Shown: positions 4,295-48,328 of the stretch, piece after piece | How positions within the stretch are numbered: position 1 is the stretch's first letter | Layout of the letters: the number at the start of each line of letters is the position of its first letter | Source: Gammaproteobacteria bacterium | GTDB taxonomy: Bacteria; Pseudomonadota; Gammaproteobacteria; Thiohalomonadales; Thiohalomonadaceae | NCBI GenBank assembly: GCA_024709225.1 | Contig: JANJXC010000033.1 | Coordinates: 1,648-65,647, forward strand | Reading direction: 5' to 3' | DNA length: 64,000 nt | Program-made: the position numbers and the translations under genes | The notes under the pieces: generated by a model | Database searches by the model: none | What the model saw: the letters and a program-made list of their open reading frames with translations, nothing else | What the model was told of the DNA's origin: nothing

Positions 4295-4297
4295 TAA

Positions 4298-28451: not shown

Positions 28452-28545
28452 CCCAAGGCTACGGCGCGTGCAGTCAAGCCGCAGTCAAGGAAACGTCAAG
28501 GAATGGTAAAGGCGGAGATGTGCGTCGAATCACTGACGGCCACGC

Positions 28546-30586: not shown

Positions 30587-30702
30587 GGGCCCACCTGCGC
30601 AAAGAAAAGGGCCATTGTACGCGCAGCGGGACTATCAGGCACCTGGCGTCAGGACAGGCGGGAGACAACGCGGGGGGATGACGTTGGCGGGCACAACGGC
30701 GG

Positions 30703-30731
30703 GGCCGCCCGCCTCACGGCGGCGGGCGGCC
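30703..30731 (-). terminator. GC-rich hairpin after soxB (no clear U-tract)
   Basis: Perfect 11-bp stem GGCCGCCCGCC (30703-30713) / GGCGGGCGGCC (30721-30731), 10 nt downstream of the soxB stop. Confidence 0.35.
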
Positions 30732-30740
30732 AGACCGGGT

Positions 30741-32480
30741 TCAGGCAGAGTAACCGGCGATGCCGGGGTTGCCGGCGACGCCCTTCAGCTTCGGCGTGTT
30801 GAACTTCTTCACCTTGGCCACCTTCTGGTCGCGCAGATAGTCGGCCACCACGTCCCAGATGGGCCGGCCCGGCGACTGGGCGCCGACGGTGGCCCAGCCG
30901 GCCACCTTGTATTTTTTGCTGGCCTCGATGGCCTTGCCGTTGTCCAGGCGCATCTCGGTGACGCGGCTGCCCATCTTCGCCGTCGGGTCGCACACATAGT
31001 CGAGGCCGGACACGCGCACCATGTCGCCGCCCTGCTGGAAGTACGGGTCCTCATTGAACAGGTTGTCCAGCACGTCCTCCAGGATCAGCTTCACCTCGGC
31101 GCCGTCCATCTCGCGCACGTAGGTCTCCGGGTAGGTGGTGCAGGTCTGGTCCAGCACATGCTCCATGGTGATGTCCTGGCCCGGCAGCACGGTGGTGCCC
31201 CAGCGGAAGCCCGGCGACAGGGCGATCTGCGCATCCCCCACCACACGCTGGGCGTCGCAGATGATCTGGTCGAAGGTGCCGTTGAAGTTGCCGCGGCGGT
31301 AGAGCAACTCGCCGGCGGTGGCCAGCTTCTCGTTGAGCTGGCCCAGGTAGGGCTTGCGCACGTTGTCGATGTAGGCCTGCATCTCGGCGTCGGCCGGCAG
31401 CAGGCGGTAGCGGAAGTCCCGCACCTTGCCGCCGCGCACGTCCAGGTCCATCACGCCCAGGTACTTGCCGTTGGAGCCGGCGTTGGTGACCAGGGTCTGA
31501 CCGCCGCGGTTCTTGATGATGGACGGGGCCGGCATGCCGTCGTGGGTGTGGCCGCCGAGGATCACGTCGATGCCGGAAACCACCGAGGCCATCTTCAGGT
31601 CCACGTCCATGCCGTTGTGGGAAATGACCACCACCAGCTCGGCCTTCTCCTCGTTGCGCACCTTGTCCACCATCTCCTGCATCGCCTCGTCGCGGATGCC
31701 GAAGGTCCAGTTGGGGATGAAGCGCGAGGGATTGGCGATGGGGGTGTAGGGGAAGGCCTGGCCGATGATGGCCACCTTCACGCCACCCACATTGCGGATG
31801 GTATAGGGCTTGAAGGCGTGGCCGGTGTTCTCGTCGAAGGACGGGAAGCCGTCGAACAGCGCCTCCTCCTTCACCTTGATGTTCTGCGCCAGGAACTCGC
31901 CCTTGAACTCGCCCACGTTTTCCAGCACCTCGCGGTCCAGGTAGGTGAATTCCCAGTGGCCGGTCATGATGTCGACGCCGAGCTGGTTGCAGGCGCCGAC
32001 CATGTCCTTGCCGCGGGTCCAGTAGGCGGTGCCGGAACCCTGCCAGGTGTCACCGCCGTCCAGCAGCAGGGAATTGCCGGCGCCGCGCTCGGCGCGGATC
32101 TGCTTGACCAGGGTGGCGAGGTGGGCGAAGCCGCCGACCTTGCCGTATTTGCGCGCCTCGTCGGCGAAATTCAGATAGCTGAAGGCATGGGCCTCGATGG
32201 AGCCGGGCTTGATGCCGAAGTGGGCCAGCAGCTTGTCGCCCACCAGGTGCGGCGCCTTGCCGTAGGAGGCGCCCAGGCCGAGATTGACGTTGGGCTCGCG
32301 GAAGTAGATCGGCTGCAGCTGGGCGTGGGTGTCGGTGATGTGCAGCAGGCTGACATTGCCGAACTTGGGGCTGTCGTACAGGGCGGAGCCGCCCTTCTTG
32401 CCGAAGGCCAGGCCCGGGGCCATGGCGGCGGCACCGGCGATCCCCATCAACTGGATGAACTGACGACGTGAAATGGACAT
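30741..32480 (-). CDS. soxB: thiosulfohydrolase SoxB
   Basis: Tat signal MSISRRQFIQLMGIAGAAAMA. Metallophosphoesterase motif LLHITDTHAQLQPIYFREP and GGDTWQGS. GAGGAG precedes ATG 32480. Confidence 0.88.
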   Translation of the reverse strand: MSISRRQFIQLMGIAGAAAMAPGLAFGKKGGSALYDSPKFGNVSLLHITDTHAQLQPIYFREPNVNLGLGASYGKAPHLVGDKLLAHFGIKPGSIEAHAFSYLNFADEARKYGKVGGFAHLATLVKQIRAERGAGNSLLLDGGDTWQGSGTAYWTRGKDMVGACNQLGVDIMTGHWEFTYLDREVLENVGEFKGEFLAQNIKVKEEALFDGFPSFDENTGHAFKPYTIRNVGGVKVAIIGQAFPYTPIANPSRFIPNWTFGIRDEAMQEMVDKVRNEEKAELVVVISHNGMDVDLKMASVVSGIDVILGGHTHDGMPAPSIIKNRGGQTLVTNAGSNGKYLGVMDLDVRGGKVRDFRYRLLPADAEMQAYIDNVRKPYLGQLNEKLATAGELLYRRGNFNGTFDQIICDAQRVVGDAQIALSPGFRWGTTVLPGQDITMEHVLDQTCTTYPETYVREMDGAEVKLILEDVLDNLFNEDPYFQQGGDMVRVSGLDYVCDPTAKMGSRVTEMRLDNGKAIEASKKYKVAGWATVGAQSPGRPIWDVVADYLRDQKVAKVKKFNTPKLKGVAGNPGIAGYSA

Positions 32481-32658: not shown

Positions 32659-32868
32659 ATGAACAGTTACGACAACATCCGCCACGACCTCTCCGACGCC
32701 AGTTTCTCCGTCACCACCGCCATTGAATTGCTGCACGGCATCGCCCAGGACGGCGGCGCGGAGAACCAGGCACTGCACGACCTTATCGCCCGCCTGGAGC
32801 AGGTGTGCAACGAACTGGACGGCCTGAGCATGAAGGTCACCGAGGTCGAAAGCCAGATCCCGGCCTGA
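32659..32868 (+). CDS. small hypothetical protein (69 aa)
   Basis: Acidic, helical-looking sequence MNSYDNIRHDLSDASFSVTTAIELLHGIAQDGG... The upstream part of track ORF 32473.. overlaps the soxB start and is implausible. Confidence 0.4.
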   Translation: MNSYDNIRHDLSDASFSVTTAIELLHGIAQDGGAENQALHDLIARLEQVCNELDGLSMKVTEVESQIPA

Positions 32869-32978
32869 GCCGGCGCCTTTTCCCATCGTAACGCGCGAAT
32901 TTGTGAAGCATTCAGGTTAAACTTGCGGCCCCGGCCGGCCAGCCGCCGGCGGGTTGCTGCCGAGGACGCCGTACATCC

Positions 32979-34787
32979 ATGTTTGACCACACCATCACCG
33001 CCCTGGCCGGCCTTGCCCTCATTGCCGTCGCCTGCCAGTGGCTCGCCTGGCGCCTGCGCCTTCCCGTCATCCTGCTGCTGCTGGCCGCCGGCATCCTGGC
33101 CGGCCCATTCAGCGGCGTGCTGCAACCCGACGCCCTGTTCGGCGACCTGCTGCCGCCGCTGCTGTCCCTGGCGGTGGCCATCGTCCTGTTCGAGGGCAGT
33201 CTGAGCTTCCGCCTCAACGACCTCACCGGCCTGGGCGGTACCGTGTTCCGCCTGGTCAGCCTTGGCGCCCTGCTCAACGGCCTCATCATTGCCGCCGCCG
33301 CCCACCTGCTGCTCGGCCTGCCCTGGCTGCTGGCCGCCCTGTTCGGCGCCATCGCCCTGGTGAGCGGCAACAGCGAACTGCTCCCCCTGTTGCGCCGGGC
33401 CCGGCCGGGCGCCCGCCTCGGCACCCTGCTGCGCCAGGAGGCCGCCCTGCTGGCCCCCCTCGCCACCCTCATCGCCGTGCTGCTGCATGCCTGGCTGATG
33501 GCCGGCGATCAGCGCGACCCGCTGCTGGCCTTTGCCAGCGCCCTGCTGGCCGGCGGCGCCCTGGGCATTGCCGGCGCCTACCTGCTGGCCCTGCTGCTGC
33601 GCAATCATCTGCTGCCGCCACACCTGGTCAACATCACCACCCTGGCCCTGGTCGTGGGCAATTACACCCTGGCCAGCGTACTGGAGCAGGAGGCGGGGCT
33701 GCTTACCGTCATCGTGATGGGCATGGCCCTCGCCAACATGAAGGACCTGCCGCTGCGCGAGCATGTGGACTTCAAGGAAAGTCTCAGCGCGACCCTGCTC
33801 TCCCTGCTGTTCCTGGTGGTGGCAGCCCGGCTGGAGCCCGCCCAGTTGGCGCTGCCCAGCGGCGAAATCATGCTGCTGCTCGGTGTCACCCTGCTGGCGG
33901 CGCGACCGCTGGCGGTGCTGCTCGCCACGATTGGCTCCCCGCTCAACTGGCGCGAACGCCTGCTGGCCGGCTGGCTCGCCCCGCGCGGCATCATGGCCAC
34001 CGCCGCCGCCGCCCTGCTCACCGCCCAGCTGCTCGACGAGCAACTGACCGCCGCCGTGCCACTGCTGCCACTGGTCCTGCTGCTGGTGCTGGGCTCGCTG
34101 CTGCTGCAGCACCTTACCGCCTACCCGCTGGGGCGACTGCTCGGTGTGGCCGAGGCGGCGCCGCGAGGCATGCTGATCGTCGGCGCCCACGGCCTCGCCC
34201 GTGCCATTGCCCGCGCCCTGCACGCCCAGGGTGTGCGCGTCGTACTGGCCGATACCGACTGGGAAGACGTTCATCAGGCCCGCATGGACGGTCTTGCCAC
34301 CTATCTGGGGCACCCTGTCTCGGAACAGGCCGACCGCAGCCTCGACCTCATCGGCATCGGCCACCTGCTCGCCATGTCCCACCGTCCCCTGCTCAACGCC
34401 CTGGCCTGCCAGCGCTACAGCAGTGAATTCGGTGGCAATCAGGTCTATTCGCTGCTCACCGCCGAGGAAAAGCGTGCCACCGGCAAGAGTGCCATCGGCC
34501 GCCACTACGCCGCCACCCGTTTGTTCGGCGGCGAACTCACCCTGACCCAACTCACCGGGATGCTCAGCCGTGGCGGTCAGATCGCCACGCTCACCCCGGG
34601 TCAAGCAGCACAGCACGCGCGCCATATCCCGCTGTTCATCCTCGATGAGCACGGTGCGGTACAGGTGGTAACCGGCAGCAGCGCCGCCCCGCGCGAAGGT
34701 GAGCATCTCATCGCCCTGCTGCCCGCGGCAGAGGAGCCACTCCCGCTGCGCGTGGATTCCGCCGTCACCAGCGCGGTCCCCGCCTGA
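32979..34787 (+). CDS. cation:proton antiporter (CPA1/NhaP-like) with C-terminal RCK/TrkA-N-like domain
   Basis: LPVILLLLAAGILAGP...VAIVLFEGSL, a polytopic core, then a MLIVGAHGLARAIARALHAQGVRVVLADTD Rossmann-like segment. Confidence 0.85.
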   Translation: MFDHTITALAGLALIAVACQWLAWRLRLPVILLLLAAGILAGPFSGVLQPDALFGDLLPPLLSLAVAIVLFEGSLSFRLNDLTGLGGTVFRLVSLGALLNGLIIAAAAHLLLGLPWLLAALFGAIALVSGNSELLPLLRRARPGARLGTLLRQEAALLAPLATLIAVLLHAWLMAGDQRDPLLAFASALLAGGALGIAGAYLLALLLRNHLLPPHLVNITTLALVVGNYTLASVLEQEAGLLTVIVMGMALANMKDLPLREHVDFKESLSATLLSLLFLVVAARLEPAQLALPSGEIMLLLGVTLLAARPLAVLLATIGSPLNWRERLLAGWLAPRGIMATAAAALLTAQLLDEQLTAAVPLLPLVLLLVLGSLLLQHLTAYPLGRLLGVAEAAPRGMLIVGAHGLARAIARALHAQGVRVVLADTDWEDVHQARMDGLATYLGHPVSEQADRSLDLIGIGHLLAMSHRPLLNALACQRYSSEFGGNQVYSLLTAEEKRATGKSAIGRHYAATRLFGGELTLTQLTGMLSRGGQIATLTPGQAAQHARHIPLFILDEHGAVQVVTGSSAAPREGEHLIALLPAAEEPLPLRVDSAVTSAVPA

Positions 34788-34805
34788 TCGCCCAGGAACA
34801 CCGTC

Positions 34806-35066
34806 ATGCAATGCTTCATCTACAAAAGCAGCAAAAAAGACCAGCTCTATCTCTACCTGCCGCAGAAGGACGAGTTCAAGGACGTGCCGCCGGTTCTGAT
34901 GGACACCATGGGGCAGCCGGAATTCGTCATGGAGCTGGAACTGAGCCCCGAGCGCAAGCTGGCCCGCGCCAACGCCGCCGACGTGCTCGCCGGCCTGAAG
35001 GAAAAGGGCTTTTACCTGCAAATGCCACCGAAAGATCCGCTGCTGGACATGCGCGTTACCCCATAA
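34806..35066 (+). CDS. ycgL: YcgL domain-containing protein
   Basis: CFIYKSSKKDQLYLYLPQKDEFKDVPPVLMDTMGQPEFVMEL...GFYLQMPP parallels E. coli YcgL. Confidence 0.8.
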   Translation: MQCFIYKSSKKDQLYLYLPQKDEFKDVPPVLMDTMGQPEFVMELELSPERKLARANAADVLAGLKEKGFYLQMPPKDPLLDMRVTP

Positions 35067-38504: not shown

Positions 38505-40394
38505 ATGTTGGACAAACTCCGCACGCCACCGACCTGCGTTGAAAATATGCCAGCCGACACAACAAAGAATATTTCCCGTTTTTTTGATATCCAGATCGCG
38601 CCGGAACACGCCAGCGCCACTCCCCTGCAGGAGGCACTGGTAACCTTCAGAACGCTGTGCGTCCTCGGTGTTGTCGCTGCCATAGCCGCCTGGTTCATCA
38701 TCGGCAGCGAGGCCGTCTTTCTCAGGCCGGCCAATATCTCGATATATTTTACTGCTACCCAGGATGTGGTCTGGCTGCTGCTCTGTGCCCTTGCCCTTCC
38801 TCTGTTCGTCCTGGCCGCGCAATCCCCGCGACTGCAGCCTTACCTGGATCGGCTGGCCGAGCATGCCGCCACCCTGCGCCGACCGGTTCTCACCCTGGCG
38901 CTGGCCACACTGCTGCTGACCGCCGTAGGCAGCTACCTTGTCTACCACGCCTTTCCGCTCTCGCTGGATGAGTACATGGCCTGGTTTCAGGCGCGCATCA
39001 TTCAGGGCGGCCATTTGCTGGCACCCATCCCGGCGGAGTGGGATGCCTTCGTCGAGGCCCTGCAACCGATCTTCATGCGTCACGACCACGCCCATGGCGT
39101 GTGGGTGCCGGGCTATCGCCCGCTTGGCGGCGCACTTATTGCGCTGTTTGATCTTGTCGGCGCCGGTACCATCACCTATGCCTTCCTGGCCGCGGGCAGC
39201 ATCGTCCTCGTAGCACTGATCGCACGCAGAATCTGGCCCGATGTTCCTTACGCCCCCGCCCTCGCCGCGCTGCTGCTGATGCTGTCACCCCAGTTCCTGG
39301 TGACCGGCATGTCGGCCTATGCAATGACCGGCCACCTGTTTTTCAACCTGCTCTGGCTGGTGTTGTTCCTGCGTGACGACAAACCCGGCCATATCGGCGC
39401 CGCCCTGACCGGCTTTGTCGCCATCGGTCTCCACCAGATTCACATCCATCCATTTTTCATTCTTCCCTTCATGCTGGCACTGCTGCCGCAGCGTCGCCTG
39501 GGGCTGCTCCTGTTCTATACCACCTGGTATGGCGCAGTGCTGCTGTTCTGGCTGCTATGGCGTGACATCGCCACAGCCTTTGACGGCGCCGTCGCCAGCA
39601 TTGCCGCCACCAAATCGACCGAAGGCACCTTCTTCCTCGGCCGCGCTCTCGCCCTGCTACGGAATCACAACCTGCTCGACGATGGCCTGTTCTGGGGCAC
39701 CAATTTCGCGCGCTTCATCGCCTGGCAAACACCGGCAATGATCGTGGGGGTTTACCTTGGCCTGCGCGCGCTCGCCAGTGCTCCACAAACGATCCGCCTG
39801 CTTGCCTGGGGCCTGCTGGCAACGCTGCTACCCTATATATTTTTCATGCCGGGCCAGGGGCACGGCTGGGGCTACCGCTATATCCACGTCGGCCTCGGCT
39901 CGCTGGCGCTCATTGCAGTGCACGGATTTATCATGCTGCGCGCCCAGTGTGACAACGCAGCGGCGCAACTACTCAAGCGCAGCGTGGTCGGGCTACTGGT
40001 GTTGGGTGCCGTCCTTGGGATACCGCTGCGCTTCGCCCAGGTGGAAAACTTCATCCGACCCTTTGCCCAGGCCAGCGACTATATTTCCCACCTACCGGCG
40101 CAGGCCGTCATCGTCAGCGCCGAAGACACCTGGTTTGGGGTCGATCTGGTACGTAACGACCCCTACCTGACCAATACGCCCAAGGTGTTGGCCAGCATCG
40201 CCCTGGGACCGGACGAAATGACCACGCTTTGCAGCCGCTATGAACCGAGCCTGATCCTCTATGATGATCTGGCCAGATTCGGCATGCGTCCCTACTATGA
40301 CACCCCTGAACAACGGAGCGTGCGTCGGCAGCCCTTGCTCCAGCATATGGAGCGCTCCGGTTGCACCCTTGCCGCCAGGTCTTCGCCGTCATGA
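38505..40394 (+). CDS. polytopic membrane protein, possible GT-C-type (ArnT/PMT-like) glycosyltransferase
   Basis: 629 aa with at least 10 hydrophobic segments. An early loop motif LSLDEY resembles the acidic loop of GT-C enzymes (weak). Its stop overlaps the GT2 start (ATGA). Start codon uncertain (38505 or 38547). Confidence 0.65.
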   Translation: MLDKLRTPPTCVENMPADTTKNISRFFDIQIAPEHASATPLQEALVTFRTLCVLGVVAAIAAWFIIGSEAVFLRPANISIYFTATQDVVWLLLCALALPLFVLAAQSPRLQPYLDRLAEHAATLRRPVLTLALATLLLTAVGSYLVYHAFPLSLDEYMAWFQARIIQGGHLLAPIPAEWDAFVEALQPIFMRHDHAHGVWVPGYRPLGGALIALFDLVGAGTITYAFLAAGSIVLVALIARRIWPDVPYAPALAALLLMLSPQFLVTGMSAYAMTGHLFFNLLWLVLFLRDDKPGHIGAALTGFVAIGLHQIHIHPFFILPFMLALLPQRRLGLLLFYTTWYGAVLLFWLLWRDIATAFDGAVASIAATKSTEGTFFLGRALALLRNHNLLDDGLFWGTNFARFIAWQTPAMIVGVYLGLRALASAPQTIRLLAWGLLATLLPYIFFMPGQGHGWGYRYIHVGLGSLALIAVHGFIMLRAQCDNAAAQLLKRSVVGLLVLGAVLGIPLRFAQVENFIRPFAQASDYISHLPAQAVIVSAEDTWFGVDLVRNDPYLTNTPKVLASIALGPDEMTTLCSRYEPSLILYDDLARFGMRPYYDTPEQRSVRRQPLLQHMERSGCTLAARSSPS

Positions 40395-41359
40395 CAACGA
40401 TGAACCAGGAACACGCTACTGCTCTGCGCGTCGCGGTAATATTGCCGTGCCACTGTGAAGAGTTAACCATTGCGAGCACTATCGATGGCTTCAGGCAACA
40501 CCTGCCACATGCCGAGATTGTCGTGTGCGACAATGCCTCTACAGATCAGACTGCAGCGGTCGCCCGGGCAGCCGGTGCGAAGGTGATCTACGAGGGGCAT
40601 CGCGGCAAAGGCGAAGCGATACGCCGCCTGTTTGCCGAGGTGGATGCCGATGTCTACGTGATGGCGGATGGCGATGCGACCTATGACGCCGCGGCGGCCC
40701 CGCAGATGATCGCGATGCTGCTCGACGGCAAGCTGGATATGATCGTGGGCAGCCGGCGACCGGTTCATGGCACCGCGCAATACCGGCCAGGACACAGCTT
40801 CGGCAACCGCCTGTTCTCGAAGATCGTACAGATGTTCTTCAACTCACCGTTTGACGACCTGTTATCCGGCTATCGCGTTCTGTCACGCCGCTTCGTCAAA
40901 ACATTTCCTGCCGAGGCCAAACGCTTCGAGATCGAAACCGAACTGACCATACACGTGCTGGAACACCGCATGCCGGTCGCGCAATGTCTCACCGACTATT
41001 TTCCACGTCCTGATGGCTCGCTCAGCAAGCTGTCGACCTTCAAGGATGGCTTCCGCATCCTGGTCACCATTCTCCAGCTGCTGCGCGATGTAAAGCCGCT
41101 GCAGTTCTTCAGCAGCATTGCCCTGCTGATTGCCGTCTTTGCGACGCTACTCACACCGCCGATCATTATTACCTTTCTCGAGACCCATACGGTGCCGCGC
41201 CTGCCGACCGCACTGGTGATCGTCGGCATGTTCATACTGTCGTTTGTGTTCCTGACCTGTGGCATCATCCTTGACCGCATCAGCGCCAGTCGCCGTCACT
41301 CTCACCGGTTATCATATCTGCAACATATGCCACCCGGCGGATCACTTGGCAAACGTTAG
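40391..41359 (+). CDS. family 2 glycosyltransferase with C-terminal TM helices (polyprenyl-phosphate glycosyltransferase architecture, ArnC/GtrB-like)
   Basis: VAVILPCHCEELTIASTI...IVVCDNASTDQT...VMADGDATYD (DxD-type), followed by two C-terminal hydrophobic helices. Confidence 0.85.
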   Translation: MTTMNQEHATALRVAVILPCHCEELTIASTIDGFRQHLPHAEIVVCDNASTDQTAAVARAAGAKVIYEGHRGKGEAIRRLFAEVDADVYVMADGDATYDAAAAPQMIAMLLDGKLDMIVGSRRPVHGTAQYRPGHSFGNRLFSKIVQMFFNSPFDDLLSGYRVLSRRFVKTFPAEAKRFEIETELTIHVLEHRMPVAQCLTDYFPRPDGSLSKLSTFKDGFRILVTILQLLRDVKPLQFFSSIALLIAVFATLLTPPIIITFLETHTVPRLPTALVIVGMFILSFVFLTCGIILDRISASRRHSHRLSYLQHMPPGGSLGKR

Positions 41360-41381
41360 ACCGTGCGAGACGCGCAGGGAA

Positions 41382-42449
41382 TTAGATCACCAGCTTCAAA
41401 AGAATCGGACTCACGAGCTTGAATAGCGGCAACGGTGTATGCCGCAGTACGACACCGCCGACACGGGCAAGAGTTCCATCCTGCGGCGTATCGAAAGGGA
41501 GACCGCTCGCCGAACCGTAGCAATGAATCAGCGGTTGGCTTACGCCACCGAACTGTTCCTTGTAGCGTAGCAGCTCTGTTTGGCCCTGAGGCGTACTACC
41601 GAAATCAACCTGGTGACATTGGTCCTTCCAAGCTGCGCGTATCGCCTCCCACATCACCGCCTGGTTTACACCGATGCGCAATGCGTCGCGATCCGTTACC
41701 GACGCCCCATAGGCGTACAGCGCGGCGGTTCCATGGTGCAGAAAAATGACGCCCCCCAGTAGGCGCCCACCGTGCTCCGCCAGAAACAGGCGTGATGCGC
41801 CGGAGGGGGCAAGCTCCTCCGCCATTACTGCAAAGAAATCGCGCGGATAGCCGGGAGCACCCTGCCGCCTGCGGGTGATTACCTGCAATTCTGCAAAACG
41901 TGCATAGTCCGCCATCGCATCCGAGAAATACGTCCTGACGCCCTCGCGCTCGGCAGCTGCAATGCGCCGACGTTTGGCCGAGTGCAACCGTTTCCACAAC
42001 GTGGTTTCCTCGTCGATACCGCGCAGGTCCAGACGGGTGACCAAATGATGCGAGGCGGGCACCATCCCCCTTAACGCTGTGGCGGCGTGGATTTCCAGAG
42101 GCCAAAGTGCCACCTGCGGCTTGATATCCTGCAGATCAAGCGCTGCAGCATGGGCTGGACCGATCTCATGGGACAGCGGCAGACAAACATTAATCTTTCT
42201 GCCCATGCGCCGCTTGGTGACAAACGGCAGAAAGAATGTCAGTGACCCGCCGCTGCCGCGCCCCACCAGGGCATGGACCGGCCAGGACAACGAGCGCTGC
42301 AGCAAACGATGCCACCCCCGGGTGTGGAACACGGTTACATCGGACAAGTCCGCCAACTCGGCGTACAAACTGTCCGGTATCGTTTCCAGCAATGTCAGTT
42401 CCGTAGATAGTGCCACTATGCGTACCCGGTATGGCCTGCTCGCAAACAT
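41382..42449 (-). CDS. FemAB/Acetyltransf_6-like (GNAT-fold) transferase
   Basis: 355 aa. HTRGWHRLL..., LFLAEHGGRLLGGVIFLHHGTAALYAYGAS... and LLRYKEQFGG are typical of the FemAB/CelD-like family (recognised by eye). Confidence 0.7.
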   Translation of the reverse strand: MFASRPYRVRIVALSTELTLLETIPDSLYAELADLSDVTVFHTRGWHRLLQRSLSWPVHALVGRGSGGSLTFFLPFVTKRRMGRKINVCLPLSHEIGPAHAAALDLQDIKPQVALWPLEIHAATALRGMVPASHHLVTRLDLRGIDEETTLWKRLHSAKRRRIAAAEREGVRTYFSDAMADYARFAELQVITRRRQGAPGYPRDFFAVMAEELAPSGASRLFLAEHGGRLLGGVIFLHHGTAALYAYGASVTDRDALRIGVNQAVMWEAIRAAWKDQCHQVDFGSTPQGQTELLRYKEQFGGVSQPLIHCYGSASGLPFDTPQDGTLARVGGVVLRHTPLPLFKLVSPILLKLVI

Positions 42450-42514
42450 ATAACCGGTTGATTATAATGGATCACCTGAATGACTAGCGACTGTATGGCG
42501 CATATACTGCACAG

Positions 42515-43435
42515 ATGAGTGAACTTTTTCGTCAAGTTGCGTTGGCTATACAGCATCAGTTCAATGATTTCGACGCATCGAGCGCCAACGTCGATGATAC
42601 CCTGGTCGACACCCTCTACCGCCCGATTTTTATCGTCGGACCGCCGCGCACCGGCACCACACTGCTTTACCAGTATCTGCTGAAAAACCTCAATCTGGCC
42701 TATTTATCCAACATCATGGCGCTGGTGCCGCGTCATATGGTCAAGCTTTCCCGGGCGTTTCCCGGCATCGCGCGTCATTACACAGCACCGCTGCACCGTG
42801 GCTACCATGGCTTCGTCCCTGGCCTGTTCGCGCCCAGCGAAGCCGGCAAGATTGTGGATCGCTGGTTCCGCGAAGATATCTGGCATGGTAACCAGAGAAA
42901 AATCCGCCAGACCGTTGCGGCCATATCACAGGCCACCGGCCTGCCGTTACTCATCAAGAGCCTGACCAACAGTACGCGCATCGAGCGCTTACATCAGACT
43001 TTTCCCGCCGCGCGGTTTATCGCGACCACACGTGATGAACGCTATGCCGCCCAATCGATCATGATGGCCCGGCAGGAGTTGCGCCTGTCCGAAGATACCT
43101 GGTGGTCGGTCCAGCCGTCCGGCAGCGAGACATTGGCCGGTAAATCAGAAGCATTTCGGGCCGTTTGGCAGGTGATTGCCACCGATCAAGGCATCGCCGC
43201 GGCCATCGCCAGCACCGGCGCGGATTTTTTTCAGGTACGCTATGAGCAGTTTTGTGACAACCCTGCCGGACTGCTACGTCAGTTGATCGATACATTTGGC
43301 CTGACGGCGTCGTCGGCAGCGGCGTCTGCTGACCGGCTCTTTACCCCGGCGACCGAGATTCGGGTAGACATGGAAACCTGGCACGCAATTGAAGATGCCG
43401 TCCGTCAACTGCGTACCGCTGTTCGTGATTCTTGA
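42515..43435 (+). CDS. sulfotransferase family protein
   Basis: PAPS-binding loops: 5'-PSB-like IVGPPRTGTTLLYQYL and 3'-PB-like TTRDERYAAQS. Confidence 0.8.
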   Translation: MSELFRQVALAIQHQFNDFDASSANVDDTLVDTLYRPIFIVGPPRTGTTLLYQYLLKNLNLAYLSNIMALVPRHMVKLSRAFPGIARHYTAPLHRGYHGFVPGLFAPSEAGKIVDRWFREDIWHGNQRKIRQTVAAISQATGLPLLIKSLTNSTRIERLHQTFPAARFIATTRDERYAAQSIMMARQELRLSEDTWWSVQPSGSETLAGKSEAFRAVWQVIATDQGIAAAIASTGADFFQVRYEQFCDNPAGLLRQLIDTFGLTASSAAASADRLFTPATEIRVDMETWHAIEDAVRQLRTAVRDS

Positions 43436-43464
43436 CCCCTGACCAGGTATCGACTGAAACGCCT

Positions 43465-44265
43465 ATGCATACAGACGCGCACCGGTACGACCGCTGGCCA
43501 CGACTGACTGCCATCGCGCTGCGCTGGAAGCTTTATCGGCCGTTCAAGATCCTCCGCGGTGTACTGCGGACCTATATTTTCAAGAAACATTATTCCAGTC
43601 CGATTGACCATGACTGGTGGGATAGCTTTTATGTCGGCCAGGATATCAGCGACGCGCAGACCATCGCCCCGGGGACCACACCTTTTCCCACCATGCTGCA
43701 TTACAACAGCATCGAAAACATCATCCTCGCGCATCTGTTCAACCAGCGCATCACCATCGAAGGGTGCAGCGTCCTTGATCTTGGCAGCGGTGCCGGGCAT
43801 TGGATCGACTTCTACCGCAGTCTTGGCGCCGCTCATATCGATGGGGTCGAAATCTCAACCAATGCCGCAACCGCGCTCAATTTGCGGTATGCCGGTATAT
43901 CCGGGATCACGATACACAATTGTCCAGCCGCCGAATTCGATAGCGGCAGGCAATTTGATGTCATCAATGCTATCGGCGTAATGTTTCATATCGTCGATGA
44001 CGGCGAATTTGAGCGCACTGTCACCAAGCTGACCGACCTGTTGAGACCGGGTGGACTGCTCATTGTAGGTGGCCATTTTGGCTGGCTCGACAACCTGAAT
44101 GTGCAGTTTGACGCCAGCGGGAGAATCAACAAGCGGCTGCGGAGTCTGCGCCATTGGCGCAAACTGTTATCCGCCTGCGCAACGGTACGCGTATATCGAA
44201 ACCGTGCCTTCCGACTCATAGACGCCCCGTTGCCGGAAAATAATATTCTGATGGCCTGTAAATGA
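43465..44265 (+). CDS. class I SAM-dependent methyltransferase
   Basis: Motif I VLDLGSGAGHW and post-I/II LRPGGLLIVGGHF. An alternative TTG start at 43432 overlaps the upstream stop. Confidence 0.75.
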   Translation: MHTDAHRYDRWPRLTAIALRWKLYRPFKILRGVLRTYIFKKHYSSPIDHDWWDSFYVGQDISDAQTIAPGTTPFPTMLHYNSIENIILAHLFNQRITIEGCSVLDLGSGAGHWIDFYRSLGAAHIDGVEISTNAATALNLRYAGISGITIHNCPAAEFDSGRQFDVINAIGVMFHIVDDGEFERTVTKLTDLLRPGGLLIVGGHFGWLDNLNVQFDASGRINKRLRSLRHWRKLLSACATVRVYRNRAFRLIDAPLPENNILMACK

Positions 44266-44399
44266 CGAACCTGGAGATACGACAGGATGCCTGGCCTGCA
44301 CCATTGGGGCATTGCCGCACTCCATTGCACTCCCTTATGAATTCTGACAAAACCTGGAATCTGAACCTGCATCTCGTCCGATAGGCTTCCAACACCATC

Positions 44400-45650
44400 A
44401 TGTTAAACGCCCCGCAACCCCGCTACCGAATCTACACAACGCCCGCCAGCTACTGGTCCATCGCCGCAGATTTGCTGCGCGGCAGTCCTGATGGCGCGGC
44501 AGGGCGGGCTGCACTCGAGCGCGCGGTCAGCGGGCAATTTGGCATCGAACACGCCATCTGCGCCCCACAGGACCGGGTCGGCATCTATCTCGCCGTTCGT
44601 ACCCTGGTCCGTCCGGGACACAAGGTCATACTGTCGCCCTATACTCTTACCGACGTGATAAATATGGTGATCTGCGCCGGGGCGATACCTGTTTTCGCTG
44701 ATATCGATCGCAGTACCTGCAATATCTCCGCCGCCGCGGTCGAGCAACTCATCGACAGTGAAACCGATGCTGTTCTGGTCACTCACCTGCATGGGCTTTC
44801 CTGCGACATGGCGCAGTTTCGCGGCCTGTGCGACCGCCACGGCCTGAAACTTATCGAAGACTGCGCCCAGGCATTCGGCGCGCGCTTTGACGGCAAGCAC
44901 GTCGGCACCTTCGGTGACGCCGGGGTTTACAGCTTCGGCCTGTACAAAAATGTGAACAGCTTTCTTGGCGGCCTGCTGGTAACCCCGCACCAACACGTCG
45001 CCGATGCGGTGCGTGCACTCATGCAGGATTGGCCACGTGAAGGCTGGCGGCGCTTACTCAGCAAGACCATAAAGGGCCTCGCCTCCGATATTGCCACCTA
45101 TCCACCACTATTCAAGCTGTTCACCTACTGGGTGTTCCGCTACGCCTATTTGCACGACATCGGCTTCCTTAACAGGAAGGTCATGATTGAGCTCAACCCG
45201 AAGCGCAAGAACGCATTGCCCGAAGCGTATGCACGCAAGTTAAGCGGTGCGCAGGCACGCATCGTGCTGTCACAATTGAAGGACGTCGACCGTTTCAGCC
45301 AGATACGCATCGAAATTGCGCGGATCTATCACGAGGGCCTGTCCGACATCCCGGGGCTGATCTGCCCACCGTTCGTCGAAGATGGCTCGCACATCTATAC
45401 CTATTACCCGCTGCAATCGACTCAGCGTACAGAACTCATCCGTCACATGGTCGAGCAGGGACGGGATGTCGCCGTGCAACATCTGCGCAACTGCGCCGGA
45501 TTGGAATGCTTCGAGGAATTTTCCCGCGACTGTCCCAATTCCGCAGCCACCGCCGAGCAATGCATTCTGCTGTCGACCTATCCACGCTTTGGCCTGGATG
45601 AGGCACGCCGCAACGTCGAGGTGATCCGGCGCTTCTACGGTGCGGCCTAG
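44400..45650 (+). CDS. DegT/DnrJ/EryC1/StrS-family PLP-dependent aminotransferase
   Basis: VLVTHLHGLSCDM, IEDCAQAFGA, and YSFGLYKNVNSFLGG (PLP-lysine context). Confidence 0.85.
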   Translation: MLNAPQPRYRIYTTPASYWSIAADLLRGSPDGAAGRAALERAVSGQFGIEHAICAPQDRVGIYLAVRTLVRPGHKVILSPYTLTDVINMVICAGAIPVFADIDRSTCNISAAAVEQLIDSETDAVLVTHLHGLSCDMAQFRGLCDRHGLKLIEDCAQAFGARFDGKHVGTFGDAGVYSFGLYKNVNSFLGGLLVTPHQHVADAVRALMQDWPREGWRRLLSKTIKGLASDIATYPPLFKLFTYWVFRYAYLHDIGFLNRKVMIELNPKRKNALPEAYARKLSGAQARIVLSQLKDVDRFSQIRIEIARIYHEGLSDIPGLICPPFVEDGSHIYTYYPLQSTQRTELIRHMVEQGRDVAVQHLRNCAGLECFEEFSRDCPNSAATAEQCILLSTYPRFGLDEARRNVEVIRRFYGAA

Positions 45651-45653
45651 CCA

Positions 45654-47321
45654 ATGCGTGTAGCAATTATCGGCTCCGGTCCTTCTGGTATCGCGGCCGC
45701 AGCGGTTTTCGCCGAACAGGGAATTCCGGTTGACCTGTTCGATGGCGGTGAAGCGCTCGAACCGCCTGCTCGCAATACCGCGGAACTGATTGCCGAAAAA
45801 CTTCGCCAGGAGAGTTGCCTCCAACGCAGCGATATGTCCGCCCTGCGTTTTGGTCCTGCACAACGTAGTTTCGGAAGATTGTTGTATAACGCCGTTACAG
45901 CGGCATTTATCAAACAGCTGCCTGCCCGCCAGCTGGAGAAAAATATATTCGGCTCCAATTTCGCATTCCGCTCAACGGAACACGGCATCCCGCTACACGG
46001 TGCATGGATGCCACGCTCACTGGCAACCGGCGGATTATCCAACGTCTGGGGCGCCGCATGCTATCCGTTACGGCATGACGACTACATCGACTGGCCGCTC
46101 ACCGAAGCCGAACTGGCCCCCTGGTATGCGAAGGCGCAGACTCTGGCGGGTGTCTGTGCCGCCGCTGATCAGCTGGAAGATGCCTATCCGATTTACCCCG
46201 CCGCAGCAAAACTGGGCAACCATGCTACGTTCGATCCCGGCTCACCGGTCGAAAGCCTGCTGTCACAATGGAAAATCAAGAGTGGAGAATTGCGCACACA
46301 CGGCCTCACCGGCGGGCGTCCACGACTGGCCGTCATGCCGCCCAGTGAAACAGGTGCGGGATGCCGGCGTTGCGGGCTTTGCCTGTTCGGCTGCCCGCTC
46401 GATGCCATCTGGCATGCCGACAAGGCAATTCCTGCCCTCAGTGCACGTTCCCGACTGACGCACCGACCCGGAGCCTTCGTCCGTCATCTGAAACGGGATG
46501 ACCGTGGACTGTGGCTGGTTACCGGCGCCCCGGACGCACCTGTCACCGAACAAGGTCCTTACGATAAAGTTCTGCTGGCCGCGGGCCCGCTGTCTTCTCT
46601 GCGCATTGCTGTTGATAGCCTCGGGCTGACCCAGCACCGTTGCCGACTCGTCGAAAATGACACCTATGTGCTGCCCTTCCGGCTTACTGCACCGCTAACC
46701 ACATCAGATACTGGACCGGTGCAGTTCGCCTTGAGTCAAGCCGTACTTGCCGTCGAGCCCGGTGTGCTGGGTAGGCGGCCGGCACATTTACAGTTCTATC
46801 GCATCACCGAGCCTATTCTCGGTGCCATCGGTCAGCTACTTGCCACCCTGCCTGCAAATCTTGGAGCGACGGTATTTCGTCTTTTGCGCTATCACCTGAT
46901 GGCCCTGGTCTACCTGCACAGCGATGACTCACGCCGCATCGAAGTGCAGATCGATGGCAAAGACGGCCCCCTTAGCAGATTGCGTATCAATGCAACGGAA
47001 CATGACCATCGTCCCGAACTGCGACAGTTTGGCTCCCTGCTCGCCGCAGCCCAGCATGCTACGGGACTCAAGCCACTGACCGCACTGGCTCGCATCGGCC
47101 CTCCCGGATTCTCCGGACATATCGGCGGCACTATGCCACTATCCACGACACCAACACTGTTGCAGTGTCAAGTTGATGGACAGCTGGAAGGATTGCCTAA
47201 CGTGTATGTTGTCGACATGTCGGTGTTCCCGGCCATGCCGGCGCAGAACCCGACCTTGACATCGATGGCCAACGCCATGCGCTGTGCAGCAACGATATGC
47301 AAATCACGCAACAGCGAGTAA
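45654..47321 (+). CDS. FAD-dependent oxidoreductase, GMC-like
   Basis: N-terminal MRVAIIGSGPSGIAAA (GxGxxG) and the C-terminal GMC-type motif VYVVDMSVFPAMPAQNPTLTSMANAMR. Confidence 0.75.
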   Translation: MRVAIIGSGPSGIAAAAVFAEQGIPVDLFDGGEALEPPARNTAELIAEKLRQESCLQRSDMSALRFGPAQRSFGRLLYNAVTAAFIKQLPARQLEKNIFGSNFAFRSTEHGIPLHGAWMPRSLATGGLSNVWGAACYPLRHDDYIDWPLTEAELAPWYAKAQTLAGVCAAADQLEDAYPIYPAAAKLGNHATFDPGSPVESLLSQWKIKSGELRTHGLTGGRPRLAVMPPSETGAGCRRCGLCLFGCPLDAIWHADKAIPALSARSRLTHRPGAFVRHLKRDDRGLWLVTGAPDAPVTEQGPYDKVLLAAGPLSSLRIAVDSLGLTQHRCRLVENDTYVLPFRLTAPLTTSDTGPVQFALSQAVLAVEPGVLGRRPAHLQFYRITEPILGAIGQLLATLPANLGATVFRLLRYHLMALVYLHSDDSRRIEVQIDGKDGPLSRLRINATEHDHRPELRQFGSLLAAAQHATGLKPLTALARIGPPGFSGHIGGTMPLSTTPTLLQCQVDGQLEGLPNVYVVDMSVFPAMPAQNPTLTSMANAMRCAATICKSRNSE

Positions 47322-47326
47322 AGACC

Positions 47327-48301
47327 ATGAAAACACCGCTGTCCGCACTGGCGGCAACCCTGTTTGCCGGATTGTTGCTTTACCTGCTCGTCAATTACTC
47401 CGGATTGACGACGGAGGATCTGACCCCTCTCCTGAAAAGCCCAAGTGTACTGGCATTGTGCGGGATCTTGGTGGCGTCCTTCGGGCACATGACATGCAGC
47501 GCACTAAAATGGCACCTCATCGTGCGACGTATCGCACCCGCACAGGCCAACCAGGCGGGGCACATGTTTTTCCTGTTCTACACTACGTTGTCTGCGGCGC
47601 TGGCCCAATTTGTAATGGTGCACCTCGCCTCGTTGCTGGTACGCGGGCTCGCCATGCGCATCCATCATCGGGTGCCTTTCGTGCATGGCGCCGCCACATC
47701 AATATTCGAGCAGCTATTTGATGTCTACGTGTTGCTGCTGTTTGCCATTTGCGGCGTGATTGCCTGGTATGCCGACCTTACGCCAGCGATCTGGCCGGCA
47801 GTTGTCATCATCGTCGTTGTGGTCGGCTGGTTTGCACTGTTCTTGACACTGCGCATGTTGCAGGTCCATAGCATCACCTACCAAGGCAGCTACCGAATCT
47901 TGCGTTCGATAGCAGGTTGGTTAACCACCTGTCGTAGTTTCGATCTTCTGGAAGGTCACCTGGTATTGCGGCTTTACGGACTGTCGCTGTTGCGTTACTT
48001 TTTCATGGCTCTGCGCATGTTTATCGTGGTGGTGGCTGTAGCACCGGCAATCGATCTTTTCGATGCAGTCATCGGGTTTACCGTCGTACAGACATCGCAA
48101 CTGATCGCAGTGACACCGGGTAGTCTCGGCATTACCGAATGGACGTGGGCCGGCTATCTTTCTCTGCTCGGCTATTCGACCACTGTTGCAACGGCCTTCT
48201 CTCTTGCACTGCGCATTCTGTCCTACGCATCCATTCTAGCCGTGCTTTGTCTGGCGGGATTGCTGCTCACCCTGGAAAAATTTCTACAGCATCGCCCATG
48301 A
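47327..48301 (+). CDS. flippase-like (LPG_synthase_TM / UPF0104) membrane protein
   Basis: About 8 hydrophobic segments. General resemblance to the MprF N-terminal flippase-like family (by eye). ATG 47327 lies 6 nt after the upstream stop. Confidence 0.6.
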   Translation: MKTPLSALAATLFAGLLLYLLVNYSGLTTEDLTPLLKSPSVLALCGILVASFGHMTCSALKWHLIVRRIAPAQANQAGHMFFLFYTTLSAALAQFVMVHLASLLVRGLAMRIHHRVPFVHGAATSIFEQLFDVYVLLLFAICGVIAWYADLTPAIWPAVVIIVVVVGWFALFLTLRMLQVHSITYQGSYRILRSIAGWLTTCRSFDLLEGHLVLRLYGLSLLRYFFMALRMFIVVVAVAPAIDLFDAVIGFTVVQTSQLIAVTPGSLGITEWTWAGYLSLLGYSTTVATAFSLALRILSYASILAVLCLAGLLLTLEKFLQHRP

Positions 48302-48328
48302 AAAAGGGCGGCTCATGGAGCCGCCCTT
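48301..48328 (-). terminator. bidirectional hairpin; rho-independent terminator for the HDOD gene
   Basis: Stem GGGCGGCTC (48306-48314) / GAGCCGCCC (48318-48326) with loop ATG, followed on the minus strand by TTTTT. It lies between convergent genes. Confidence 0.7.

Follow-up and report, generated by a model that had tools for sequence, protein, structure and literature searches.

An eight-gene cassette in a gammaproteobacterial genome with the predicted components of an Arn/Gtr-like envelope glycosylation system

Within a 64-kb stretch of DNA from the gammaproteobacterial contig JANJXC010000033.1 (the window, whose positions are used throughout), we analyzed a locus of eight genes, g1 through g8, which occupies positions 38505-48301 and is referred to here as the cassette. 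We propose that the cassette encodes a three-stage, Arn/Gtr-like envelope glycosylation system that tailors a lipid-linked monosaccharide at the cytoplasmic face of the membrane, an interpretation that we hold with somewhat better than even confidence. An earlier reading of the letters alone (the sequence-only reading) had arrived at the same general logic, which we find to be the best supported because g1 is predicted to have the fold of a GT-C glycosyltransferase, the genes are co-conserved, g1-family genes are paired with GT2 glycosyltransferase genes, and the locus contains no exporter, nucleotide-sugar, or mobility genes.

Organization of the cassette

Domains were assigned by profile searches with Pfam and NCBIfam. 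The cassette and its boundaries comprise the following features, with protein lengths in amino acids (aa):

g1, 38505-40394, plus strand, 629 aa: polytopic membrane protein with a predicted GT-C fold; predicted periplasmic transferase that uses a lipid-linked sugar
g2, 40391-41359, plus strand, 322 aa: GT2 with two C-terminal transmembrane helices; predicted polyprenyl-phosphate hexose synthase (AglJ/DPMS/GtrB/ArnC type)
g3, 41382-42449, minus strand, 355 aa: FemAB/Acetyltransf_6-type protein (dupGNAT), convergent with g2; predicted N-acyl or N-aminoacyl transferase
Divergent g3-g4 intergenic region, 42450-42514, 65 bp: likely to contain the promoters of g4-g8 and of g3
g4, 42515-43435, plus strand, 306 aa: sulfotransferase of the type that uses 3'-phosphoadenosine 5'-phosphosulfate (PAPS)
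g5, 43465-44265, plus strand, 266 aa: class I S-adenosylmethionine (SAM) methyltransferase; optional member of the cassette
g6, 44400-45650, plus strand, 416 aa: DegT/DnrJ/EryC1-family aminotransferase dependent on pyridoxal 5'-phosphate (PLP)
g7, 45654-47321, plus strand, 555 aa: GMC-fold sugar dehydrogenase type with flavin adenine dinucleotide (FAD) and an Fe-S cluster motif; predicted to oxidize a sugar hydroxyl
g8, 47327-48301, plus strand, 324 aa: stand-alone MprF-flippase-type (LPG_synthase_TM/PplT) membrane protein; predicted flippase
GC-rich hairpin, 48304-48328: separates the stop codons of g8 and a convergent HDOD gene; marks the end of the cassette

None of the eight open reading frames (ORFs) is disrupted; they overlap or lie close together and retain their catalytic and cofactor motifs. 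The sequence-only reading had counted nine products, although its own list contained eight; the largest intergenic gap is 134 bp, which excludes a ninth gene. The stop codon of g1 and the start codon of g2 overlap as ATGA at 40391-40394, the translational coupling noted in that reading. The ORF of g5 is open from a TTG at 43432, and the start assigned by the gene caller is the ATG at 43465.

As previously noted, the stretch is less GC-rich than its flanks: the GC content of the cassette is 0.582, compared with 0.649 for the remaining window, which makes it the lowest-GC 9.8-kb stretch of the window. Similarly, GC content at third codon positions ranges from 0.59 to 0.74 among cassette genes, compared with 0.70-0.92 in seven flanking or other window genes, of which only the gene encoding DUF6231 (0.70) falls inside the cassette range. 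The hairpin at the end of the cassette, which had been described as a strong bidirectional terminator, consists of an 11-bp inverted repeat with 100% complementarity and a 3-nt loop. The perfect hairpin is real, but a proper T-run is available to the minus-strand gene only (AAAA precedes the repeat), with just TT following it on the plus strand. A simple promoter and terminator scan missed this hairpin and detected no more sites than in shuffled sequence. The scan yielded a promoter-like match at 42480-42508 on the plus strand (9 of 12 positions), and such matches were no more common than in shuffled sequence.

The genes that flank the cassette are unrelated to it: DUF1015, DUF6231, and a pentapeptide-repeat protein are encoded upstream, and an HDOD/tRNA_edit protein and DinB are encoded downstream. 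Profile searches of the cassette and eight flanking genes detected no Wzx, Wzy, or Wzz protein, no ABC exporter, and no initiating phosphoglycosyltransferase. Profile searches of the locus likewise detected no sugar kinase, no nucleotidylyltransferase, and no nucleotide-sugar dehydratase or dehydrogenase, including members of the short-chain dehydrogenase/reductase (SDR) and Gfo/Idh/MocA families. Mobility genes were absent from the locus and its immediate flanks. These results agree with the absences listed in the sequence-only reading. We rejected a standard O-antigen or capsule cluster as an identity for the locus, which lacks an initiating transferase, a polymerase, a Wzx-type flippase, and an exporter.

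A GT-C-fold protein from a family without a Pfam model

The product of g1 was previously described as a polytopic membrane protein of 629 aa, and we predict at least 9 transmembrane helices for it. No Pfam or NCBIfam model matched g1 at E <= 0.01, including the ArnT/PMT models PF02366 and PF13231, and a profile of 57 g1-family sequences failed to match any sequence in the Protein Data Bank (PDB) at E <= 10. The sequence-only reading had proposed examining this protein for a GT-C fold. The AlphaFold2 model built on the 57-sequence alignment reached a predicted local distance difference test (pLDDT) score of 92.7 and a predicted template modeling score (pTM) of 0.93. When this model was compared with the PDB by Foldseek, the top 23 matches were all GT-C enzymes (ALG12, STT3, ALG9, PglB, ArnT, AftD, Pmt4, and AftA), with probabilities of 0.99-1.00, E values from 1e-5 to 3e-2, and template modeling scores (TM-scores) of 0.33-0.56; those for ArnT were 0.46/0.53. 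The matches that followed were unrelated transporters with probabilities below 0.25. Based on this model, g1 appears to be a GT-C-fold glycosyltransferase that belongs to a sizeable, undescribed family without a Pfam model. An exhaustive profile search clustered at 50% identity identified 931 representatives of the family at E <= 1e-30 and 3895 at E <= 1e-3, and some homologues carry the UniRef label 'RgtA/B/C/D-like domain'. Across the 57 sequences, residue E156 is invariant and D155 is at least 90% conserved. Both residues lie within a 71-residue, net acidic loop that follows the third hydrophobic segment, and charge bias suggests that this is the first long loop on the periplasmic side, the usual location of the catalytic acidic motif in GT-C enzymes.

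Among 49 metagenomic loci with enough flanking sequence, 26 contain a GT2 gene within 6 kb of the g1-family gene. The g1-family genes of Thiorhodococcus and Terrihabitans are also near GT2 genes, with GT2_TM_C in both and GtrA_DPMS_TM in Terrihabitans. Pairing of the GT-C gene with a GT2 gene of the polyprenyl-phosphate type is thus a general property of the g1 family. The coupling of g1 to g2, together with the nearby GT2 genes, would fit the predicted use of a polyprenyl-(pyro)phosphate-linked sugar donor by g1. A comparison by hhalign of the g1 profile with membrane proteins encoded beside DegT-GMC pairs or in related clusters, namely a 741-aa protein of locus L012, a PMT_2 protein of L016, a 523-aa protein of L065, and two Azospirillum hypothetical proteins yielded no match, in a profile-versus-single-sequence format that is too weak for GT-C families.

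Several contexts of g1 homologues hint weakly at lipopolysaccharide (LPS) as the acceptor. Homologues are located inside O-antigen-like clusters in Thiorhodococcus and on a plasmid of Gemmobacter aquarius; another adjoins a PAP2 phosphatase gene in Terrihabitans, and one adjoins a gene for an LtaS/sulfatase-family protein in L007. The G. aquarius plasmid locus (L174, NZ_CP028919.1 24850-42160) encodes a g1-family protein with 39% identity that is annotated as hypothetical, and the surrounding cluster encodes an O-antigen translocase, a DegT protein, an FdtA/QdtA isomerase, and several glycosyltransferases, including a divergent GT2 of 316 aa. Tandem or neighboring pairs of g1-family paralogues were frequently observed, e.g., in L001 (8069-11824), L116, L130, L147, and L153; the pair of Thiorhodococcus minor, for example, consists of 613-aa and 607-aa proteins. 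By analogy to RgtA-D, such pairs suggest that a single genome may encode several acceptor specificities.

A polyprenyl-phosphate-type glycosyltransferase and a candidate flippase

The assignment of g2 as a GT2 with C-terminal transmembrane helices was borne out by a match to Glycos_transf_2 (E = 6e-17) and by two helices at residues 243-261 and 275-293. The protein also contains a DGD motif and aligned to positions 2-289 of the 293 positions in TIGR04182 (E = 1.5e-55), the model of the archaeal dolichyl-phosphate hexose transferase AglJ, and its best sequence match in the PDB was the Dol-P-Man synthase of P. furiosus (5mlz). These features indicate that g2 has the architecture of a polyprenyl-phosphate glycosyltransferase and is a relative of AglJ rather than AglJ itself.

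For g8, the proposed similarity to LPG_synthase_TM was upheld by matches above the cutoffs of two models: LPG_synthase_TM (PF03706; E = 8e-14, 52.2 bits against a cutoff of 33.4) and TIGR00374 (51.0 bits against 43.2), with nearly the whole profile aligned. The protein has 7 hydrophobic segments. In the profile search, the transmembrane-region model alone matched, and no aminoacyl-phosphatidylglycerol synthase domain was detected, which indicates that g8 is not MprF proper; a single-sequence search of the PDB returned no MprF entry. Family membership thus places g8 with the MprF-flippase/PplT domain proteins, and its gene context predicts a role in lipid translocation. PplT domains also occur fused to glycosyltransferases (bioRxiv 10.1101/2022.03.11.483950). 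A g8-type gene is present in all six cassettes that combine a g2-type GT2 gene with the DegT-GMC gene pair described below (the window, L004, L006, L012, L013, and L097), and g8-type genes are also found near g1-family genes in L101, L110, L140, and L171.

A DegT aminotransferase paired with an Fe-S-type GMC dehydrogenase

The DegT-type aminotransferase recognized in the sequence-only reading corresponds to g6, which matched the DegT model with E = 2e-58 (198.6 bits against a cutoff of 19.8). Its best match in the PDB was a glutamine-scyllo-inositol transaminase (E = 6e-32), followed by perosamine synthases and ArnB. The protein can be aligned to its solved relatives at residues 38-208 only, and its C-terminal half is divergent. 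We take the Lys in YSFGLYKNV, which was assigned without an alignment, to occupy the position of the PLP-binding lysine of the family.

The neighboring gene, g7, had been labeled a GMC-like FAD oxidoreductase, and a match to GMC_oxred_C (E = 9e-9) is consistent with this label. Using an AlphaFold2 model of g7 (pLDDT 93.8), we found that the top Foldseek matches were the large subunit of fructose dehydrogenase (FDH) and the alpha subunit of the FAD-dependent glucose dehydrogenase (FAD-GDH) of B. cepacia, with TM-scores of 0.65-0.70, followed by bacterial pyranose 2-oxidases and C-glycoside oxidases. The sole sequence matches in the PDB below 1e-6 were 7qf8, a bacterial pyranose/glycoside oxidase, and 7dve, for which the sequence file gives the molecule name 6'''-hydroxyparomomycin C oxidase and the entry title reads FAD-dependent C-glycoside oxidase. 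Enzymes of the 6'''-hydroxyparomomycin C oxidase type act before transamination in the biosynthesis of neomycin and paromomycin. The g7 family features the motif C237-x2-C240-x2-C243-x3-C247-P. Of its four cysteines, C237, C243, and C247 occur in all 53 sequences compared, and C240 occurs in 47 of them. In B. cepacia FAD-GDH, the ligands of the 3Fe-4S cluster are Cys212, Cys218, and Cys222 (PMC6719666). The C-x5-C-x3-C-P spacing of g7 equals the spacing of these ligands, a correspondence made by spacing and not residue by residue in the structures. In these respects g7 resembles an Fe-S-containing FAD sugar dehydrogenase, an assignment that is more specific than the earlier label. Because g7 begins directly with its FAD-binding fold and its gene adjoins that of a PLP aminotransferase, the protein is most likely cytoplasmic.

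A scan of species-representative genomes with a GMC alignment identified 292 relatives in many phyla, of which the best is 37% identical to g7. The GMC gene is accompanied by that of a DegT orthologue (E values from 1e-123 to 1e-156) in several groups. The two are direct neighbors in metagenome-assembled genomes (MAGs) of Acidobacteriota, Myxococcota, Spirochaetales, Rhodospirillaceae, and Deltaproteobacteria, and a single short ORF lies between them in one MAG of Solirubrobacterales and in another of Myxococcota. From its distribution, the DegT-GMC pair appears to be the oldest unit of the cassette. In a Myxococcota MAG (L016, JAKVBI010000022.1, 3896-11665), genes for a GT2, a PMT_2-type GT-C, a sulfatase, a DegT protein, and a GMC protein lie in a row, which suggests that the pair joined a GT2 and a different GT-C family independently. 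In a Solirubrobacterales MAG (L059), genes for a GT2, a GtrA-domain protein, a GMC protein, and a DegT protein occur together with a gene for a protein with 10 transmembrane segments. Such gene rows indicate that the DegT-GMC pair has repeatedly become associated with glycosylation machinery that uses a lipid carrier, and with more than one GT-C family. The sulfatase of L016 is soluble and contains an SGSH_C (N-sulphoglucosamine sulphohydrolase C-terminal) domain. Alongside the sulfotransferase of the cassette, this sulfatase hints that sulfation, perhaps N-sulfation, of an amino sugar may be a recurring theme with the DegT-GMC pair.

Searches of plasmids revealed just distant analogues. One is found in a cultured strain, Azospirillum sp. 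B510, on plasmid pAB510f (L175, NC_013860.1 132877-150211), where the cluster encodes a methyltransferase, a GT4, a GT2, a TPR/GT9-like hypothetical protein, an LPG_synthase_TM protein, a GT9 of the heptosyltransferase family, a GMC protein, an NAD(P) oxidoreductase, and a 572-aa hypothetical protein. Its GMC protein is 30% identical to g7, and the sulfate-activation genes cysD and cysN are located about 6 kb away. This cluster could serve as a genetic model.

Additional tailoring enzymes

Three further soluble proteins are predicted to modify the sugar. The gene convergent with g2, g3, was previously assigned to a FemAB/Acetyltransf_6-like transferase, and its product matched Acetyltransf_6 (E = 1e-16; 61.5 bits against a cutoff of 22) and pepcterm_femAB (E = 4e-19). 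The match to the FemAB profile fell just under the cutoff (22.8 bits against 24), and sequence alone does not separate an aminoacyl-tRNA donor from an acyl-CoA donor; the best match in the PDB was Weissella FemX (E = 4e-4). The PAPS-type sulfotransferase predicted from the loops PPRTGTT and RDERYAAQS is g4, which matched Sulfotransfer_3 (E = 6e-21; 76.1 bits against a cutoff of 27). Within these 5'-phosphosulfate-binding and 3'-phosphate-binding loops, residues P44, R45, G47, T49, R173, A179, Q180, and S181 are invariant in five orthologues. Finally, g5 matched SAM methyltransferase models, as anticipated, including Methyltransf_25 (E = 2e-11) and, with weak similarity, NodS (E = 2e-7).

Conservation and modularity of the cassette

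The sequence-only reading had suggested that conservation of the gene neighborhood be examined. The set is co-conserved in two relatives, L004 (GCA_976551105.1) and L006, in which the cassette occupies the same slot between DUF6231/pentapeptide and HDOD/DinB genes. Apart from a replaced FemAB-like gene, the cassette proteins are approximately 37-60% identical to their L004 and L006 counterparts. In L004, g1 is 52% identical and the methyltransferase gene is missing; in L006, g1 is 58% identical and all genes are co-directional. The cassette is also more AT-rich than its flanks in these relatives, and because this slot is shared with diverged relatives, the low GC content is no sign of recent insertion. 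The cassette has long resided in this lineage and is not a fresh island. A recent horizontal island was accordingly rejected as an explanation, given the conserved slot and the absence of mobility genes from the window. Insertion sequence (IS) elements with IS4-type and IS481-type transposases are located beside or near the cassette in relatives (L004 6499-7830 and L013 12653-13609), and none was observed in the window.

The core of GT2, sulfotransferase, DegT, GMC, and PplT genes was also found in a Sedimenticola MAG (L012) and in L013. L012 additionally contains a FemAB-like gene and, directly upstream of the GT2 gene, a gene for a 741-aa protein with 8 transmembrane segments and TPR repeats. 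Orthologues of g3 are present in L004 and L012 and absent from L013; the L004 orthologue is clear and is encoded on the opposite strand. In L006, the g3 slot (4688-5626) contains a different Acetyltransf_6 gene, which encodes 312 aa, is co-directional with the rest, and has a phmmer E value of 4e-5 to g3. The g3-slot gene has thus been replaced in L006 while its position in the cassette was kept. The methyltransferase gene g5 is present in L006 and L009-L011 and absent from L004, L012, and L013. Adjacency of g1 and g2 is maintained in L004, L006, L097, and many other loci. Other combinations illustrate that the cassette is modular: in L097, the genes for the flippase-like, GMC, and DegT proteins are divergent from those for the GT-C and GT2 proteins; L140 contains GT-C, GT2, GT4, methyltransferase, and LPG_synthase_TM genes; and L171 contains GT2, flippase-like, GT4, and GT-C genes.

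Comparison with known systems

By analogy, the cassette appears to work like the three-component Arn, Gtr, Flm, Lgm, and Rgt systems while being a member of none of them. The Arn system (PmrHFIJKLM) of E. coli, Salmonella, and Pseudomonas, which modifies lipid A with aminoarabinose, parallels the cassette. Its aminotransferase, ArnB, is of the DegT family and appeared among the PDB matches of g6; its GT2, ArnC, attaches the sugar to undecaprenyl phosphate; ArnD tailors the lipid-linked sugar on the cytoplasmic side of the membrane; ArnE/F is the flippase specific to the pathway; and ArnT, a GT-C transferase, appeared among the Foldseek matches of g1. In contrast to Arn, the cassette and its eight flanking genes contain no domains of ArnA (the UDP-sugar dehydrogenase/decarboxylase/formyltransferase), ArnD, or ArnE/F. 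Oxidation is instead assigned to a GMC-fold FAD/Fe-S dehydrogenase, the candidate flippase is of the MprF type and not the EmrE type, g1 lies outside the Pfam models for ArnT/PMT, and the cassette adds a sulfotransferase, a methyltransferase, and a FemAB-like transferase.

The Gtr system of O-antigen glucosylation (GtrA/GtrB/GtrC), Francisella FlmF2/NaxD/FlmK, Bordetella LgmABC, Rhizobium RgtE/RgtA-D, and the Gram-positive CsbB/YfhO and GtcA systems likewise combine three components: a GT2 that acts on polyprenyl phosphate, a flippase, and a polytopic transferase on the periplasmic side. In Francisella and Bordetella, deacetylation of the lipid-linked sugar precedes the flip, whereas oxidation and transamination would generate the amino group of the cassette product de novo. 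The locus in the window lacks GtrA, which some relatives of the family have (L003 and L059), and the tailoring predicted for the cassette is far more extensive than that of Gtr-type systems. The operon hexSDF of Clostridioides difficile, which makes an amino-glycolipid and includes a gene for a stand-alone MprF-like flippase, resembles the cassette in combining a glycosyltransferase, an amino-sugar tailoring enzyme, and an MprF-flippase-like protein without a synthase domain (PMC10128005). However, HexS is predicted to be a glycolipid synthase of the diacylglycerol type that yields a free glycolipid, and HexSDF has no GT-C, no sulfotransferase, and no GMC/DegT pair; HexF is also not essential for making the lipid (PMC10128005).

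The proteins most similar in structure to g7, Burkholderia cepacia FAD-GDH alpha and Gluconobacter FdhL, are the catalytic subunits of direct-electron-transfer FAD dehydrogenase complexes; they share its C-x5-C-x3-C(P) spacing but differ from it in several ways. A small subunit with a twin-arginine translocation (Tat) signal, known as a 'hitchhiker', and a multihaem cytochrome c subunit accompany those enzymes, and neither was found in the locus or its flanks. Furthermore, the g7 family contains a fourth, mostly conserved cysteine (C240) that yields a ferredoxin-like CxxCxxCxxxCP motif, sequence identity is only about 15%, and the predicted location of g7 is the cytoplasm, where it would work with an aminotransferase. 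Aminoglycoside 6'-oxidases of the NeoQ/LivQ type and their aminotransferases offer a parallel in chemistry: a GMC enzyme oxidizes the hydroxyl of a glycoside, and transamination follows. The aminotransferase partners of these oxidases belong to another class than g6. The bacterial pyranose 2-oxidases and C-glycoside 3-oxidases are similar to g7 in sequence (7dve and 7qf8) and rank high by fold. Unlike g7, both the NeoQ/LivQ-type and the pyranose/C-glycoside oxidases lack the Fe-S motif, and they use O2 and soluble substrates. Searches of full-text literature that covered this combination of genes and the PplT/LPG_synthase_TM family found no description of the cassette or of the DegT-GMC pair.

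Proposed mechanism and alternative explanations

The folds or families of the eight proteins, their membrane or soluble nature, their conserved motifs, and the co-conservation of their genes are directly supported. No signal peptide or transmembrane segment was predicted for g3-g7, with one borderline hydrophobic stretch in g6. This result, together with the cofactors expected for these proteins (PAPS, SAM, PLP, FAD, and acyl-CoA or aminoacyl-tRNA), implies that g3-g7 act in the cytoplasm or at the inner membrane face, before the flip. In the model that we propose, g2 would draw on a housekeeping nucleotide sugar to load undecaprenyl phosphate with a hexose. The lipid-linked glycoside would then be oxidized by g7, which would convert a ring hydroxyl to a ketone and pass electrons via its Fe-S cluster to an acceptor, and g6 would use PLP to turn the ketone into an amine. 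Sulfation by g4 with PAPS (O- or N-linked), methylation by g5 with SAM, and N-acylation or N-aminoacylation by g3 would follow. The decorated carrier lipid would be moved to the periplasmic leaflet by g8, and g1 would then attach the sugar to an acceptor in the periplasm, for which LPS (lipid A-core or O-antigen) is the most probable candidate. We infer in this scheme the carrier lipid, tailoring on the lipid instead of a nucleotide sugar, the identity of the sugar, the positions and order of its modifications, the assignment of g8 as the flippase, and the nature of the acceptor. Tailoring of a lipid-linked sugar fits best with a locus that has no nucleotide-sugar or activating enzymes and with a g7 whose relatives act on sugars and glycosides. 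In its most specific form, which we advance tentatively as a possibility, the model states that the DegT-GMC/Fe-S pair aminates a polyprenyl-phosphate-linked hexose and thereby bypasses nucleotide-sugar chemistry, and that the product is sulfated, possibly on nitrogen, flipped by an MprF-type protein, and placed on LPS by an unrecognized GT-C family.

Several observations weigh against the model. To our knowledge, there is no characterized precedent for oxidation and transamination of a sugar linked to polyprenyl phosphate. The score of g2 lies below the equivalog cutoff for AglJ (188.7 against 325 bits), such that its donor and acceptor are not defined by family. A g8-type gene lies within 8 kb of only 5 of 49 g1 loci and 1 of 73 GMC loci, which indicates that this type is a recurrent, and not a general, partner. 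Of the distant GMC homologues, at about 30% identity, most have no DegT gene nearby, and many have no GT2 gene nearby. In both L012 and L013, the GT2-sulfotransferase-DegT-GMC-PplT core occurs without a g1-family gene, which indicates that the GT-C is not obligatory in the cassette; the Arn/Gtr-like logic of the sequence-only reading is qualified to this extent. The exact cassette proteins were found just in metagenomes and one MAG contig, and the source organism is uncultured. Finally, FAD-GDH and FDH, which provide the best structural matches for g7, are periplasmic and act on free sugars (PMC6719666).

The five-gene core of L012 and L013 would also be expected if the end product were a free membrane lipid, with g1 as a lineage-specific add-on. 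In that case, g2 would glycosylate polyprenyl phosphate, diacylglycerol, or another lipid, the head group would be aminated and sulfated, and g8 would flip the resulting sulfo-amino-glycolipid to the outer leaflet or towards the outer membrane. HexSDF, the characterized system that combines a glycosyltransferase with an MprF-like flippase, has a free glycolipid as its product (PMC10128005), and proteins of the MprF and PplT type are known to flip or scramble diacyl lipids. We nevertheless regard this explanation as unlikely. The full length of g2 aligns with polyprenyl-phosphate hexose synthases, a Dol-P-Man synthase is its best PDB match, and it does not match the GT4 or GT28 diacylglycerol glycosyltransferases. 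The ATGA overlap of g1 and g2, and the adjacency of their counterparts in L004, L006, L097, and many other loci, also tie the GT2 to the GT-C, and the protein with 8 transmembrane segments encoded beside the GT2 gene of L012 could be another GT-C.

Quite unlikely, in our assessment, is a scheme in which g7 and g6, perhaps with g3, g4, and g5, modify a nucleotide sugar or a free amino sugar before g2 loads the carrier. Such a soluble precursor would be in keeping with the characterized DegT-family enzymes, all of which use soluble nucleotide keto-sugars or inososes, with the Arn, Francisella, and Bordetella systems, in which the amino function is present before transfer to undecaprenyl phosphate, and with the use of free sugars by FAD-GDH and FDH. 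However, the locus has no sugar kinase, no nucleotidylyltransferase, and no SDR or Gfo/Idh/MocA nucleotide-sugar dehydrogenase, and we know of no GMC enzyme that acts on nucleotide sugars. The divergent C-terminal half of g6, outside the alignable residues 38-208, sets it apart from the solved members, and the DegT-GMC pair is repeatedly found beside genes for polyprenyl-phosphate GT2, GtrA-domain, and GT-C proteins. A chance neighborhood, or a decaying remnant of a polysaccharide island without a common function, is highly improbable. GC content below that of the flanks, the IS elements near the cassette in L004 and L013, and the variable presence of the methyltransferase and FemAB-like genes would suit such an origin; yet the eight ORFs are intact, packed or overlapping, with their motifs kept, and the same combination recurs in unrelated genomic contexts. 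Synteny largely refutes this explanation, as the gene set is maintained in the same slot at approximately 37-60% protein identity. Our preferred interpretation therefore remains an Arn/Gtr-like system that tailors a lipid-linked sugar.

Other features of the window

The SecD protein encoded in the window shares 82% identity with its counterpart in Sulfurivermis fontis and 81% with that of a Thiohalomonadaceae MAG, which places the source, a sulfur-oxidizer-like gammaproteobacterium, near the Thiohalomonadaceae. Beyond the cassette, the window encodes two very large multi-PAS signaling proteins: an NMT1-PAS-GGDEF protein at 14940-18020 (plus strand), directly downstream of a tRNA gene at 14745-14828, and a HAMP-PAS-GGDEF-EAL protein at 20216-24076 (minus strand). 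Three co-directional ORFs of 141, 286, and 330 aa at 2894-5290 (plus strand) have GC contents of 0.49-0.50, compared with about 0.65 elsewhere; a hexapeptide-repeat transferase-like ORF borders them on one side and a gene for a SpoU methylase on the other. They had no Pfam match at 1e-4 and no PADLOC match at 0.01, and they may represent a small acquired islet. The long ORFs upstream of the cassette at 32667-35021 (minus strand), 26259-28691 (plus strand), 28546-30114 (plus strand), and 30543-32471 (plus strand) had no Pfam match at the thresholds used. In the GC-rich DNA at 26-35 kb, ORFs overlap on both strands, and gene calls there are ambiguous.

Significance

As far as we have found, three elements of the cassette are new: a GT-C family without a Pfam model, an Fe-S GMC/DegT pair that may aminate lipid-linked sugars, and an MprF-type flippase candidate for a carrier-linked sugar. 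Even if our model is wrong in detail, the locus is a coherent, conserved, and uncharacterized cassette for envelope modification. If the model is correct, oxidation and transamination on a lipid-linked sugar would constitute a new route to amino sugars, the MprF-type protein would offer a candidate, open to testing, for the flipping of polyprenyl-phosphate monosaccharides, a step that is poorly understood, and a new GT-C family would be added to envelope biology. A sulfated, methylated, N-acylated amino sugar on a Gram-negative surface would alter surface charge and therefore could affect resistance to cationic peptides and recognition by phage, as Arn does.

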